A stretch of DNA of 64,000 bases from Escherichia coli (GTDB lineage: Bacteria; Pseudomonadota; Gammaproteobacteria; Enterobacterales; Enterobacteriaceae). The notes below the pieces were generated by a model. It was not told the origin of the DNA and made no database searches. It worked only from the letters and a program-made list of their open reading frames with translations. Position 1 is the first letter of the stretch, and every line of letters starts with the position of its first letter. This document shows, piece by piece, positions 890 to 37,158 of this stretch. The position numbers were made by a program, and so were the translations under genes. The stretch lies in the NCBI RefSeq assembly GCF_024223415.1, contig NZ_CP100500.1; one strand, 5' to 3'.

Positions 890-3394
890 ATGTCACAAAC
901 TATCGACCTGACCCTGGACGGCCTGTCCTGCGGTCACTGCGTTAAACGCGTGAAAGAAAGTCTCGAACAGCGCCCGGATGTGGAACAAGCGGATGTGTCT
1001 ATCACTGAAGCGCACGTTACCGGGACTGCCAGTGCAGAACAGCTGATCGAAACCATCAAACAAGCGGGTTATGACGCATCTGTAAGCCACCCAAAGGCTA
1101 AACCGCTGGCGGAGTCATCAATCCCGTCGGAAGCACTGACAGCGGTTTCTGAGGCGCTTCCGGCAGCGACCGCCGATGACGATGACAGCCAGCAGTTGCT
1201 GCTGAGCGGCATGAGCTGCGCCAGCTGTGTCACCCGCGTACAAAATGCGTTGCAAAGCGTACCGGGCGTCACTCAGGCACGGGTAAACCTGGCGGAGCGT
1301 ACTGCGCTGGTGATGGGCAGTGCCTCCCCACAAGATTTAGTGCAGGCGGTGGAAAAAGCGGGCTACGGTGCGGAAGCGATTGAAGATGACGCGAAACGCC
1401 GCGAGCGCCAGCAAGAAACCGCCGTCGCTACGATGAAGCGCTTCCGCTGGCAGGCAATTGTTGCATTGGCTGTGGGTATCCCGGTAATGGTCTGGGGGAT
1501 GATCGGCGATAACATGATGGTCACCGCTGACAACCGCAGCCTGTGGTTGGTTATCGGCCTGATAACCCTGGCAGTGATGGTTTTCGCCGGCGGCCATTTT
1601 TACCGCAGTGCATGGAAAAGCCTGCTGAACGGTGCAGCGACGATGGATACGCTGGTGGCGCTGGGTACTGGCGTGGCGTGGCTCTATTCGATGAGCGTCA
1701 ACCTGTGGCCGCAATGGTTCCCGATGGAAGCGCGACATCTTTATTACGAAGCCAGCGCGATGATTATCGGTCTGATTAATCTCGGCCATATGCTGGAAGC
1801 GCGCGCACGTCAGCGTTCTTCAAAGGCGCTGGAGAAATTACTCGATTTAACTCCGCCGACGGCGCGCCTGGTTACTGACGAAGGTGAAAAAAGCGTGCCG
1901 CTGGCGGAAGTTCAGCCAGGCATGCTACTGCGCCTGACGACGGGCGACCGCGTGCCAGTAGATGGCGAGATTACCCAGGGCGAAGCATGGCTGGATGAAG
2001 CGATGCTGACGGGCGAACCTATTCCGCAGCAAAAAGGCGAAGGCGATAGCGTCCATGCCGGTACAGTGGTACAGGACGGTAGCGTGCTGTTTCGCGCCAG
2101 TGCGGTTGGTAGCCATACCACGCTATCAAGGATCATTCGTATGGTGCGCCAGGCCCAGAGCAGTAAGCCAGAAATCGGTCAGCTGGCGGATAAAATCTCA
2201 GCCGTATTTGTGCCGGTAGTAGTGGTTATTGCGCTTGTCAGTGCGGCAATCTGGTATTTCTTTGGTCCGGCACCGCAGATTGTCTATACCCTGGTGATTG
2301 CCACCACGGTGCTGATTATTGCCTGCCCGTGTGCGCTGGGGCTGGCGACGCCGATGTCGATTATTTCCGGCGTCGGGCGGGCGGCTGAGTTTGGCGTGCT
2401 GGTGCGGGACGCCGACGCGCTGCAACGCGCCAGTACACTCGATACCGTCGTGTTCGATAAAACCGGGACGCTGACCGAAGGGAAGCCGCAGGTTGTCGCA
2501 GTGAAAACATTTGCTGATTTTGACGAAGCGCAGGCGCTGCGTCTGGCGGCGGCACTGGAACAAGGTTCCAGCCATCCGCTGGCACGGGCGATCCTCGATA
2601 AAGCAAGCGATATGCAGCTGCCGCAGGTCAACGGTTTCCGCACATTGCGCGGGCTGGGCGTGAGCGGTGAAGCTGAAGGTCATGCGTTATTGCTGGGCAA
2701 TCAGGCGCTGTTAAATGACCAGCAAGTTGATACTAAAGCGATTGAAGCAGATATTTCAGCTCAGGCATCGCAAGGGGCAACGCCTGTGCTGCTGGCGGTT
2801 GACGGGAAAGCGGTAGCCCTGCTGGCTGTACGCGATCCGTTGCGTAGTGATAGCGTGGCGGCGCTGCAACGTCTGCATAAAGCGGGATATCGTCTGGTGA
2901 TGTTGACCGGGGATAACCCAACCACCGCCAATGCGATCGCCAAAGAAGCAGGGATTGATGAGGTGATCGCCGGGGTGCTGCCGGACGGTAAAGCCGAAGC
3001 GATTAAACGCCTGCAAAGTGAAGGACGTCAGGTGGCAATGGTGGGCGACGGCATTAACGACGCGCCAGCGCTGGCTCAGGCGGATGTCGGCATTGCGATG
3101 GGTGGCGGCAGTGATGTTGCTATTGAAACCGCGGCGATTACCCTGATGCGCCATAGCCTGATGGGTGTTGCGGATGCGCTCGCTATTTCCCGCGCAACGC
3201 TGCGCAACATGAAGCAGAACCTGCTCGGCGCGTTTATCTACAACAGTATCGGTATTCCGGTTGCCGCCGGTATTTTGTGGCCGTTTACTGGAACACTGCT
3301 TAACCCGGTGGTTGCCGGAGCGGCAATGGCGCTCTCGTCGATTACCGTAGTGAGTAACGCCAACCGGTTGCTGCGGTTTAAACCGAAGGAATAA
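890..3394 (+). CDS. copA: Cu(I)-exporting P-type ATPase CopA, 834 aa
   Basis: ORF track; two N-terminal GxxCxxC metal-binding domains, CPC, DKTGT and GDGIND motifs. Confidence 0.97.
1090..1096 (+). other. Programmed -1 ribosomal frameshift site in copA (slippery C CCA AAG) giving the short CopA(Z) chaperone
   Basis: cac cca aag gct at codons 67-70; the -1 frame reads aaa ggc taa and stops at once; reported for E. coli copA. Confidence 0.6.
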
Positions 3395-3399
3395 GTACG

Positions 3400-3524
<125 letters not shown>

Positions 3525-3592
3525 TGAACTGCACCCCAAATGTTGGACATAATCTGACATCTGAAGGTGCAGTTTATGAAACATTCATTTGA

Positions 3593-4096
3593 AGTAAAAC
3601 TGCCGCTGTAAATCATTACCTGGCCGGTCATGCAGGCATCATTTCTACGGCAAAACTCTTTCAACTTTCTCACACCAGCCTCTCACACTGGATTAATCTT
3701 TTTCTTCTTCACGGTCCTCAGGCACTGGATTGCAGACACAAGCGTAGCTATTCTCCTGAAGATAAACTTTGCGTGGTTCTTTATGCTCTCGGGCATTCTG
3801 AGTCTCTACCCCGGGTAGCTGCCCGGTTTAACATTCCCAGCCACAACATGGTTAAAAACTGGATAAAAGGCTACCGCAAATCTGGTAATGAGGCCTTTAT
3901 CAGGCGCAGGAAGGAGAAAAGCATGACCCGTTCTGATGATACCCATGAAAACGAGGCAAACATGACGCCGGAAGAGATGAAGAATGAGCTGCGTTATCTT
4001 CGCGCAGAAAATGCATATCTGAAAGCCATGCAGGAGCATCTCCTGGAAAAAAAGCGCCAGGAGCTGGAGAAAAAACGAAAGTCATCCAGAGCCTGA
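3593..4096 (+). CDS. IS3-family transposase OrfA (HTH); frame open from 3593 but no in-frame ATG, ORF track starts it at GTG 3773; likely 5' frameshifted
   Basis: Translation ..VNHYLAGHAGIISTAKLFQLSHTSLSHWINLF..RVAARFNIPSHNMVKNWIKGYRKSGNEAF.. plus leucine-zipper-like C-terminus; upstream ATG near 3576 is in another frame and stops after 11 codons. Confidence 0.6.
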   Translation, partial: SKTAAVNHYLAGHAGIISTAKLFQLSHTSLSHWINLFLLHGPQALDCRHKRSYSPEDKLCVVLYALGHSESLPRVAARFNIPSHNMVKNWIKGYRKSGNEAFIRRRKEKSMTRSDDTHENEANMTPEEMKNELRYLRAENAYLKAMQEHLLEKKRQELEKKRKSSRA

Positions 4097-4200
4097 AGTG
4101 CGGACACTGCCAGTCTGACCTGTTAAAGGCTGCAGGGCTGGCCAGAAGCACGCTGTACTACCAGCTGTCACTGCAGAAGGCTAAGGACAAGTATGCTGAT

Positions 4201-4955
<755 letters not shown>

Positions 4956-5122
4956 GTAAGCGTCGCATCAGGCAATGGTACTCGGATGCCGGATGCGGCG
5001 TGAACGCCTTATCCGGCCTACGGTTCAGGCACAGGTTTGTAGGCCTGATAAGACGCGTAAGCGTCGCATCAGGCAATGGTGCTCGGATGCCGGATGCGGC
5101 GTGAACGCCTTATCCGGCCTAC
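4956..5122. repeat. REP/BIME cluster, right part, immediately downstream of ybaQ
   Basis: Repeated gccggatgcggcgtgaacgccttatccggcctac and gcctgataagacgcgtaagcgtcgcatcaggc units. Confidence 0.8.
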
Positions 5123-5144: not shown

Positions 5145-5486
5145 TTACGCGACCTTTTTTGCACGCTCTTCACGGCGTGCCAAATATTCAGCCACTGTTT
5201 CAATCCGTCCCAATTCTTCCTGGGTACGCATGTTGTTTTCAACTTCCCAAAGATCAACTGCCGCCTGGAGGTTTAGCCAAAAATCGACTGTGGTATCAAA
5301 AACTTTCGCCAGACGGAATGCCATTTCAGTGGTGAGTTTACGATTATTATTGATCAGTGTACTGACGCTATTACGATGAACATGCAGCAACTCTGCTAAC
5401 TCATTGATTTTCAAAGAGAGCGGTTCCAGATATTCATAGAGAAGAATATCTCCGGGTGTCGTCGGTTTTCTTGTTGCCTGTTTCAT
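5145..5486 (-). CDS. ybaQ: HTH-type transcriptional regulator YbaQ, 113 aa
   Basis: ORF track, start set at MKQATRKPTT from recalled protein. Confidence 0.9.
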   Translation of the reverse strand: MKQATRKPTTPGDILLYEYLEPLSLKINELAELLHVHRNSVSTLINNNRKLTTEMAFRLAKVFDTTVDFWLNLQAAVDLWEVENNMRTQEELGRIETVAEYLARREERAKKVA

Positions 5487-5623: not shown

Positions 5624-6418
5624 ATGGATCTGTTGTACCGGGTAAAAACGCTTTGGGCCGCGCTGCGCGGTAATCATTACTCCTGGCCTGCCATCGATAT
5701 CACCCTCCCCGGCAATCGCCATTTTCATCTGATTGGCAGTATTCATATGGGTAGCCACGATATGGCTCCCCTGCCCGCCCGTTTGCTCAAAAAGCTCAAA
5801 AACGCCGATGCGCTGATCGTCGAGGCGGATGTTTCCACCAACGATACGCCTTTTGCTAATTTGCCTGCCTGCGAGGCGCTGGAAGAGCGCATTAGCGAGG
5901 AGCAACTCCAAAAACTGCAGCACATTAGCCAGGAGATGGGCATTTCTCCCTCACTCTTTTCTACCCAACCGCTGTGGCAAATCGCGATGGTTCTTCAGGC
6001 GACGCAGGCACAAAAACTGGGGCTGCGGGCAGAATACGGTATCGATTACCAGCTATTGCAGGCGGCGAAGCAACAACATAAACCCGTGATTGAACTGGAA
6101 GGGGCGGAAAACCAGATTGCCATGTTGCTCCAGCTCCCTGACAAAGGACTGGCGCTGCTGGACGATACGCTGACCCACTGGCATACCAACGCACGGTTGC
6201 TGCAACAAATGATGAGCTGGTGGCTGAATGCGCCGCCGCAAAATAATGAAATAACGCTGCCCAATACGTTCAGTCAGTCGCTGTACGATGTGCTGATGCA
6301 TCAGCGAAATCTCGCCTGGCGGGATAAATTACGCGCCATGCCGCCGGGGCGATATGTGGTCGCGGTCGGTGCACTACACCTGTATGGAGAAGGGAATTTG
6401 CCGCAAATGTTGCGCTAA
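5624..6418 (+). CDS. ybaP: TraB-family protein YbaP, 264 aa
   Basis: ORF track; recalled protein and synteny. Confidence 0.9.
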   Translation: MDLLYRVKTLWAALRGNHYSWPAIDITLPGNRHFHLIGSIHMGSHDMAPLPARLLKKLKNADALIVEADVSTNDTPFANLPACEALEERISEEQLQKLQHISQEMGISPSLFSTQPLWQIAMVLQATQAQKLGLRAEYGIDYQLLQAAKQQHKPVIELEGAENQIAMLLQLPDKGLALLDDTLTHWHTNARLLQQMMSWWLNAPPQNNEITLPNTFSQSLYDVLMHQRNLAWRDKLRAMPPGRYVVAVGALHLYGEGNLPQMLR

Positions 6419-6500
6419 AAAAATGGCCAATATCGCTATTGGCCCGTCAAAGAGGAATTTCATTTTTTTATTATTATGCCGTCACTTTAAGCGACGGTGT
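6417..6500 (-). ncRNA. chiX: Hfq-dependent sRNA ChiX (MicM/SroB)
   Basis: Reverse complement reads ACACCGTCGCTTAAAGTGACGG...GGCCAATAGCGATATTGGCCATTTTTTT, matching recalled ChiX; ybaP-ybaK intergenic; 3' T-run overlaps the ybaP stop. Confidence 0.9.
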
Positions 6501-12149: not shown

Positions 12150-12262
12150 TTGCCGGATGTAAAATATGAAAAATATGTAGGCATGATAAGACGCGCCAGC
12201 GTCGCATCAGGCATCGAGATGCCAAATGCCAGATGCGGCGTGAACGCCTTATCTGGCCTACG
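12150..12262. repeat. REP/BIME elements between convergent ybaL and gsk
   Basis: gcatgataagacgcgccagcgtcgcatcaggc and gccagatgcggcgtgaacgccttatctggcctac. Confidence 0.8.
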
Positions 12263-19577: not shown

Positions 19578-21515
19578 TCAAATGGGGCGGATACTTTCTT
19601 CATCCAGCTCCGCATCGAAAAACCGACGCAGGGTCTGAATATTATTATCCGCAATAATGGACTCGCGCGCCTGCGCAAGTTTTTCTTCGTATATCGCCTG
19701 ACGCCACTCCAGCGGCGTACGCACCGCGGGATTATCATCTTCAACGATAGTCAGTTCAACCGTTGAACCTTTTAACATGCTCAACGCTTCAGCCAGTTTT
19801 TGCTGTGCACCGCGGTTGTTCAAATGCCGCTGAGAGGAGCGCAAATGCAGACATACTGCGTTGTCGCTCTCCTCTTTCCAGGCATTTAACGCCACCTGTT
19901 CGACCAGTTTTGGTAGCGAAAGTTGGCTCACCTGTGCCGCCCACGGGTCGCGCTCAATGGCTTCTGCCGCTAGCTTCGCCGCCAGTTCCGGCGTTTTTTC
20001 ATGTTCCAGCGCTTTTTTCAGCGCCTTCGGCGTGGCGACCACTTCTTTTTGCTGTATCACCGGAGTGGTCGCCTTCCAGCGATACGCTTCTTTTTTGGCT
20101 GGCGCTTTTTCCAGCGCCGATGGCACCGGACGCGCCTGAACGCGATCGGTGACCGAAGCCAGTCTTTCCAGCGCAGCGTTATTCACCGGCCGCGCGCGGG
20201 TAGCGGCTGCCGGTTCACTCTTTTTTGCTTTGGTTGCTCCCTGCACGCGCTGCAACTGCTGGCGCGCCGCCAGCACCTGGCTGGTGGTTTCCGGGAGCGG
20301 TACAGTCGGTGCCTGCTGCGGCGCTGATTGCGGTTGCGGTTGCGGCGGCACCTGGGTTGGCGTCATTACTGCCGTTGGCGCGACGGGTGCAAAGGACTGG
20401 CGTGGCACTTCTGGCTCAGGCAGCGGCATACGCGGATGGAACGCCAGCGCGCGCAGCAGCGTCATCTCAACGCCCATGCGGCGGTCCGGCGCATACGGTA
20501 ATTCTTTGCGACCAATCAACAGCGTCTGATAGTAAAGCTGAATATCCGTCGGCGGTATGGTGCGCGCCAGTTCACGCATCCGCAGCTCGATGGCGGCCAT
20601 GTCGTTGCCAAGTGCAGCAGGCGAAAGTTGTACCATCGCAATACGATGCAACAGGCCGAGCATTTCCACCAGCAACGCTTCCCACTCGATACCACGGGCA
20701 GCGGCTTCATTAATCAGCGCCATTACGCGCTCGCCGTTGGCCTCGACCATCGCTTCAACCAGCGACAGCGCCTGATCGTCGTCAAGCGTACCCAGCATCG
20801 CACTGACCGCCTGGGTTGAAACCTGGCCGTCACCGCTGGCAATCGCCTGGTCGGTCAGACTTAAGGCATCTCGCAGGCTGCCTTCAGCGGCGCGCGCCAG
20901 CAATTGCAGCGCCCGCGGCTCGTGAGCGATATGTTCTTCATTGAGGATGTGCTCAAGTTGATGGCGAATTTGCTCGACATCCAGCGCCTTGAGATGAAAT
21001 TGCAAACAGCGCGACAAAATCGTCACCGGCAATTTCTGTGGATCGGTCGTCGCCAGCAGAAACTTAACGTGCTCCGGCGGCTCTTCAAGAGTTTTTAACA
21101 GTGCGTTAAAGCTGTGGCGCGACAGCATATGCACTTCGTCGATGAGATAAACTTTGAAACGACCACGCGCCGGAGCGTACTGGACGTTATCCAGCAGGTC
21201 GCGAGTGTCTTCAACTTTGGTGCGCGAGGCGGCGTCGATTTCAATCAGATCGACAAAGCGCCCCTGCTCGATTTCACGACAGTTATCGCACACGCCGCAC
21301 GGCGTCGCGGTAATGCCGGTTTCGCAGTTTAGCCCCTTCGCCAGCAGTCGGGCGATAGAGGTTTTTCCGACGCCACGGGTACCGGAAAAAAGATAAGCAT
21401 GATGAATACGCCCTAACGACAAGCCGTTCGCCAGTGCGGTCAGCACATGTTCCTGGCCGACGACGTCAGCAAAGGTTTGTGGGCGCCATTTTCGGGCTAA
21501 GACCTGATAACTCAT
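19578..21515 (-). CDS. dnaX: DNA polymerase III tau/gamma subunit DnaX, 645 aa in this sequence
   Basis: ORF track; Walker A GTRGVGKT; internal recoding site. Confidence 0.96.
   Translation of the reverse strand: MSYQVLARKWRPQTFADVVGQEHVLTALANGLSLGRIHHAYLFSGTRGVGKTSIARLLAKGLNCETGITATPCGVCDNCREIEQGRFVDLIEIDAASRTKVEDTRDLLDNVQYAPARGRFKVYLIDEVHMLSRHSFNALLKTLEEPPEHVKFLLATTDPQKLPVTILSRCLQFHLKALDVEQIRHQLEHILNEEHIAHEPRALQLLARAAEGSLRDALSLTDQAIASGDGQVSTQAVSAMLGTLDDDQALSLVEAMVEANGERVMALINEAAARGIEWEALLVEMLGLLHRIAMVQLSPAALGNDMAAIELRMRELARTIPPTDIQLYYQTLLIGRKELPYAPDRRMGVEMTLLRALAFHPRMPLPEPEVPRQSFAPVAPTAVMTPTQVPPQPQPQSAPQQAPTVPLPETTSQVLAARQQLQRVQGATKAKKSEPAAATRARPVNNAALERLASVTDRVQARPVPSALEKAPAKKEAYRWKATTPVIQQKEVVATPKALKKALEHEKTPELAAKLAAEAIERDPWAAQVSQLSLPKLVEQVALNAWKEESDNAVCLHLRSSQRHLNNRGAQQKLAEALSMLKGSTVELTIVEDDNPAVRTPLEWRQAIYEEKLAQARESIIADNNIQTLRRFFDAELDEESIRPI
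20220..20226 (-). other. dnaX programmed -1 frameshift site (A AAA AAG) with downstream stem-loop, producing gamma
   Basis: Plus strand cttttttgc is the reverse complement of gcAAAAAAGag; GC-rich stem-loop at about 20170-20215. Confidence 0.8.
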
Positions 21516-37044: not shown

Positions 37045-37158
37045 TGGGTGGGGGCCCTGCCAGCTACATCCCGGCACACGCGTCATCTGCCTTGGCTGCT
37101 TCCTTCCGGACCTGACCTGGTAAACAGAGTAGCGTTGCGGGAGAACCAACAGAGCCCC
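37045..37158 (-). ncRNA. ffs: 4.5S RNA, SRP RNA component
   Basis: Reverse complement begins GGGGGCTCTGTTGGTTCTCCCGCAACGCTACTCTGTTTACCAGGTCAGGTCCGGAAGGAAGCAGCCAAGGCAGATGACGCGTGTGCCGGGATGTAGCTGGCAGGGCCCCCACCC, matching recalled 114-nt 4.5S RNA; ybaA-atl intergenic. Confidence 0.93.

Follow-up and report, generated by a model that had tools for sequence, protein, structure and literature searches.

The -1 frameshift element of dnaX in a 64,000-nucleotide stretch of Escherichia coli DNA and the coordinates of the predicted gamma product

Within the dnaX gene of the Escherichia coli DNA analyzed here (one stretch of 64,000 nucleotides, in the following referred to as the window), the minus strand carries the heptamer AAAAAAG. 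This raises the question whether the heptamer is the site of the programmed -1 frameshift by which the gamma subunit of DNA polymerase III would be produced from the tau reading frame, and, if so, at which coordinates the gamma product has to be annotated. As laid out below, the site is almost certainly the programmed -1 ribosomal frameshift cassette of E. coli dnaX, that is, the textbook element, and no sequence evidence against this reading was found. The element is already known and already annotated in RefSeq; it is ordinary, and its value is one of annotation only. All features discussed are compiled in Table 1.

Table 1. Positions of dnaX, of the components of its frameshift cassette, and of other features in the window.
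Feature	Position	Strand	Basis or remark
dnaX zero-frame ORF (tau)	19578..21515	minus	ORF list; 645 amino acids plus stop
Predicted gamma coding region	complement(join(20215..20220,20220..21515))	minus	computed; 433 amino acids, ~47.8 kDa
Whole frameshift cassette, Rfam RF00382 (DnaX ribosomal frameshifting element)	20181..20245	minus	cmscan
Shine-Dalgarno-like stimulator AGGGAG	20237..20242	minus	computed from sequence and spacing
Slippery heptamer A_AAA_AAG	20220..20226	minus	sequence; codons Ala430-Lys431-Lys432 of this allele
-1 frame codons GAG UGA	20215..20220	minus	sole gamma-specific residue Glu, then gamma stop
Stimulatory stem-loop CCGGCAGCCGCUACCCGCGCGCGGCCGG	20186..20213	minus	MFE fold and Rfam consensus pairs
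copA slip site C_CCA_AAG	1090-1096	plus	shift-prone register, codons 67-69 of copA (890..3394)
IS3-family element IS1397 between copA and ybaQ	~3525-4959	plus	'programmed frameshift' annotation in SCU-316
sroB	6417-6500	minus	Rfam, above threshold
SRP RNA (ffs)	37055-37151	minus	Rfam, above threshold
sraA	54803-54898	plus	Rfam, above threshold
naRNA4 (REP/BIME-type), two	5042-5119; 12180-12258 (minus)		Rfam, above threshold

Gene context, register of the heptamer, and the -1 frame

The gene neighbours are those known from K-12, with the order mscK, rsmS, priC, ybaN, apt, dnaX, ybaB, recR, and htpG. The dnaX sequence is 100% identical to that of E. coli SCU-316, which is annotated as 'DNA polymerase III subunit gamma/tau', and approximately 98.9% identical to the gene of K-12-derived strains; this product name together with 'DnaX frameshifting element' is the RefSeq annotation in every genome record among the matches listed. 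PDB tau chains align end to end with the 645-amino acid DnaX protein, in which the Pfam domains DNA_pol3_delta2, ATPase lid, gamma3 (domain III; residues 232-358), tau_4 (domain IV; residues 419-500), and tau_5 (domain V; residues 502-642) are recognized. Two of the 5424 dnaX matches obtained in the E. coli genome collection are located on plasmid-labelled records, which are probably mislabelled or misassembled replicons.

At a larger scale, positions 819-64000 of the window are 99.975% identical to the SCU-316 chromosome in reverse-complement orientation. The matches to sraA, sroB, ffs, and naRNA4 are to be expected in this region of the E. coli chromosome. Positions 1-818, upstream of copA, have no match to SCU-316, where glsA follows. 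Only 5 of 5426 complete E. coli genomes contain the junction formed here. In strain GF60, a P2-like prophage (ogr/Delta, gpD, tail genes) is inserted beside copA, and the same junction forms its edge.

The presence of AAAAAAG on the minus strand inside dnaX, as described in an earlier note on this DNA, was confirmed by the sequence and by the ORF list. The heptamer occupies nucleotides 1290-1296 of the gene and is in phase 2, meaning that a codon ends with its first A and that the register is X_XXY_YYZ. In the zero frame, GCA AAA AAG AGU (A K K S) is read across the heptamer; the -1 frame, taken from the first A of the heptamer, reads AAA AAA GAG UGA (K K E stop). The gamma stop codon UGA, at 20217..20215 of the minus strand, is thus only one codon past the slip, and the immediate termination of the -1 frame, for which the earlier note had proposed translation as a check, was indeed obtained.

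It might be argued that the heptamer is nothing but an ordinary Lys-Lys codon pair, that the features in its neighbourhood are coincidental, and that there is no programmed frameshift at this site. In favour of such a view, AAAAAAG is a common motif, with 26 copies observed in the window versus 15.4 expected, and three of them are located in dnaX itself. The two additional dnaX copies (20096..20090 and 20018..20012) were rejected as slip sites; they are in phase 0 (AAA_AAA_G) and not shift-prone, and the X_XXY_YYZ register is found exclusively for the copy at 20226..20220. In the window as a whole, only 3 of the 26 copies occupy the shift-prone register of a sense gene, namely those in dnaX, in IS1397, and in the last codons of ybaQ, and the copy in copA (gene start at 890) is in phase 1 and, hence, out of that register. 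Such a low count is in line with a report that E. coli genes avoid A_AAA_AAG in this register (PMC4066793), an avoidance that speaks against the occurrence of the dnaX heptamer by coincidence.

Stimulatory elements and conservation of the cassette

The heptamer is flanked by two further elements. On its 5′ side, AGGGAG is separated from it by a spacer of exactly 10 nt; an SD-like element has been described as a frameshift stimulator (PMC5389563, PMC6815119), and it constitutes the third stimulatory element, which was absent from the earlier note. On the 3′ side, a stem-loop of 28 nt begins 6 nt from the heptamer, and an extra A-U closing pair is possible, by which it would extend to 20214..20185. 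A GC-rich stem-loop had previously been placed at about 20170-20215; the hairpin is contained in that range, the limits of which are too wide, with an excess of approximately 16 nt at the 3′ end.

According to the minimum free energy fold, the hairpin has an energy of -16.3 kcal/mol and accounts for 92% of the ensemble, and its predicted pairs are those of the RF00382 consensus structure. In comparison with dinucleotide shuffles, the hairpin energy is not significant (z = -1.63 for the 28-mer and -0.48 for the 76-mer). The shuffled sequences fold well, too, because the stretch is GC-rich, and thermodynamics alone would, therefore, not single out this hairpin. This result is a further point on the side of mere coincidence. 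Folding energy was set aside as evidence for the hairpin, and the covariance model, the identity with K-12, and the comparison across genera were used instead.

The RF00382 covariance model, by which sequence and structure are scored jointly, is matched over its full length (model positions 1-65 of 65) with 96.8 bits versus a gathering score of 35; the E-value is 2.7e-21 in a 3-kb search and 5.8e-20 in a search of the whole window. Another Rfam match in the 3′ part of dnaX, to STnc460 at 19638-19727, reached 25.3 bits versus a threshold of 70 (E = 0.093) and was rejected as a chance match. Within the species, 5372 of 5423 complete E. coli genomes contain an identical copy of the 65-nt element.

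Beyond the species, a pattern scan of species-representative genomes revealed 36 loci, originating from Citrobacter, Salmonella, Enterobacter, Escherichia species, Leclercia, Lelliottia, Erwinia, Pantoea, and others. Since the SD element, the heptamer, and GAGUGA were fixed in the scan pattern, only the hairpin provides an unbiased test of conservation across genera. In the cross-genus alignment, the lower stem is invariant in 14 distinct sequences. Compensatory changes are seen in Erwinia and Pantoea, where the closing A-U pair is replaced by G-C, and in Enterobacter sp. ENT03, where one upper G-C pair is replaced by A-U. In this alignment, 90.8% of the cells are paired, versus 28-51% after sliding of the partners by 1-3 columns. 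Sequences of the Enterobacter clade have a re-registered upper stem (GCGC...GCGC), for which reason the E. coli upper-stem pairs 41-54 and 42-53 look 'broken' in that clade. With RNAalifold, only the lower stem and two upper pairs were recovered from the 14-sequence alignment, including one covarying pair. Individual folding of 12 distinct sequences from other enterobacterial genera yielded the hairpin in all 12 cases, at the same distance from the heptamer.

Considering that the heptamer is common and the stability of the hairpin is unexceptional, the significance is in the combination of features, that is, in the register, the immediate -1 stop, the SD-like element, the spacing of the hairpin, and the host gene together. 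The only in-register copy of the heptamer in dnaX is the one that is accompanied by the immediate -1 stop, by AGGGAG at 10 nt, and by the hairpin at 6 nt; moreover, the E-value of the covariance model and the identity of the 65 nt with the experimentally dissected K-12 element stand against coincidence, which is deemed to be of negligible probability. Preference is given to the programmed cassette, and the earlier assignment of the site as the classical -1 frameshift giving gamma is upheld by the full-length RF00382 match, the identity with K-12, and the RefSeq annotation.

Comparison with K-12 and predicted products

In comparison with dnaX of the K-12 strain RP437, the gene contains 15 single-base differences and one in-frame insertion of 6 nt. 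The insertion is a tandem duplication of CCGCAA at nucleotides 1171-1176 of the gene (window positions 20345..20340, minus strand), by which Pro-Gln is added in a low-complexity linker and an existing repeat is extended from PQPQ to PQPQPQ. It is located 114 nt upstream of the heptamer, and the insertion allele is present in 9 of 5420 complete E. coli genomes. The comparison with the K-12 gene, which had been proposed in the earlier note, revealed zero differences from RP437 at nucleotides 1177-1460, that is, in the 284 nt around the signal.

Because of the upstream in-frame duplication, the heptamer starts at nucleotide 1290 of the gene versus 1284 in K-12, which is an offset of +6 nt or two codons. 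A displacement relative to K-12 had been named beforehand as an argument against the frameshift site; such a displacement is found in the literal sense, but phase and local context are unchanged, and the argument does not hold in its intended sense. Any transfer of K-12 coordinates to this allele must allow for the offset of +6 nt.

The two-codon Pro-Gln duplication is also the reason for the predicted lengths of the products, which are 433 amino acids for gamma and 645 amino acids for tau, versus 431 and 643 amino acids, respectively, in K-12; the computed mass of tau is approximately 71.3 kDa. Residues 1-430 of PDB chain 8giy_B, a 431-residue K-12 chain of gamma length, align to residues 1-432 of the protein described here. 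The suggestion that the coordinates would be useful for annotation of the gamma product proved to be correct insofar as a joined coding region could be derived from them (Table 1), which allows gamma to be annotated beside tau (19578..21515, 645 amino acids).

Given a working cassette, the rare CCGCAA duplication could have an effect, in this lineage, on the gamma:tau ratio or on the efficiency of the frameshift. The duplication is real, its low frequency (9 of 5420 genomes) is established, and it precedes the heptamer by 114 nt on the same mRNA. However, it is clearly separated from the 65-nt element and would not be covered by a ribosome positioned on the heptamer, and neither the three known stimulators nor their spacings are changed; being in frame, it extends the PQPQ repeat already existing in the linker. 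An altered efficiency is, thus, regarded as very unlikely. Equally unlikely is a measurable influence of the Pro-Gln expansion on the gamma:tau ratio or on the behaviour of the flexible linker between domain III and the frameshift; if there were such an influence, the composition of the clamp loader would be slightly different in this lineage.

Proposed mechanism and relation to known frameshift systems

Frameshifting in dnaX is well documented. Three signals, namely the slippery A_AAA_AAG, the upstream SD element, and the downstream hairpin, promote the -1 shift with an efficiency of approximately 50-80% (PMC5389563). The contribution of each of them is evident from efficiencies determined in vitro, which are 84% for the intact element, 50% after mutation of the SD, 20% if the hairpin is missing, and 2% if the site is non-slippery (PMC5389563). 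According to another report, 50% of the ribosomes shift and terminate one codon later (PMC5009743), and the level of frameshifting is modulated by both the SD-like element and the ribosome load (PMC6815119).

By analogy with the experiments on the identical K-12 sequence, slipping would take place here with an efficiency of approximately 50%, and each element would have the role described for K-12. In ribosomes translating the tau frame, the AAA-AAG part of A_AAA_AAG would be occupied by two tRNA-Lys. Translocation would be hindered by the hairpin, which begins 6 nt downstream and is positioned at the mRNA entrance, and AGGGAG, 10 nt upstream, would pair with the 3′ end of the 16S rRNA. Both tRNAs could then shift back by one base and pair with AAA-AAA. 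Roughly one half of the ribosomes would read GAG (Glu) and stop at UGA, releasing gamma; the remaining ones would continue to tau, which includes domain IV for binding of DnaB and domain V for binding of the alpha subunit. The slip residue 432 is located past domain III, about 14 residues into the tau_4 match, and well ahead of tau_5; therefore, gamma would retain the clamp-loader core (domains I-III) followed by only the first ~14 residues of the tau_4 match, and would be devoid of most of domain IV and of the entire domain V.

Gamma could also be formed by transcriptional slippage on the A run or by proteolysis of tau instead of ribosomal slippage. Precedents exist with Thermus thermophilus, where transcriptional slippage is used, and with Caulobacter, where tau is proteolyzed (PMC5009743), and the present site does contain a run of six A. 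However, transcriptional slippage has been described on runs of nine A or T (PMC5009743), and the sequence is identical to that of K-12, for which ribosomal frameshifting on defined mRNAs has been achieved in a reconstituted in vitro system (PMC5389563). In addition, the conserved SD-like element and hairpin make sense only for a ribosomal mechanism. Either of the two other routes is, thus, highly improbable for this gene, and slippage of the ribosome on A_AAA_AAG would be the source of gamma.

One further in-register site was noted in ybaQ (HigA-family antitoxin; 5145..5486), in which GCA_AAA_AAG, the same nine bases as in dnaX, is found with the heptamer at 5154-5160 (minus strand), three codons before the stop. 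Judging from the sequence, slippage by -1 at this point would exchange the final two residues and lengthen the protein by approximately nine. No hairpin is apparent by eye at the usual spacing, and REP elements start approximately 35 nt downstream. This occurrence is probably an unprogrammed site.

Compared with known systems, the element is closest to the dnaX cassette of K-12, with which it shares AGGGAG, the 10-nt spacer, A_AAA_AAG, the 6-nt spacer, the 28-nt stem-loop, and GAG UGA in the -1 frame, as well as the host gene and its apt-dnaX-ybaB-recR-htpG neighbourhood. It differs in being located two codons further into the gene and in the 15 single-base differences, all of which are outside the cassette.

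Another chromosomal -1 frameshift, by which the protein is likewise truncated right after the slip, is that of copA. There, the -1 frame reads CCC AAA GGC TAA (P K G stop), and the predicted 70-amino acid product fits the published copper chaperone CopA(Z). In contrast to dnaX, the heptamer is C_CCA_AAG; the stimulators of copA, too, reportedly differ from those of dnaX and the efficiency is said to be lower, as put forward by Meydan et al. in 2017.

The IS3 family, with IS911 and IS3 and, in this window, IS1397, has in common with dnaX the A_AAA_AAG heptamer in the same register. In IS1397, which is flanked by REP-bearing direct repeats (3424-3524 and 4960-5060), the heptamer is located at 4048-4054 (plus strand) in the shift-prone register of orfA (3773..4096), and orfB follows in the -1 frame, to position 4923. 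IS911 additionally resembles dnaX in its arrangement of SD-like element and stem-loop (PMC6815119). The outcome of the shift is different, however; in the insertion elements it extends into orfB and gives rise to a fused transposase, whereas in dnaX the protein is cut short after a single codon.
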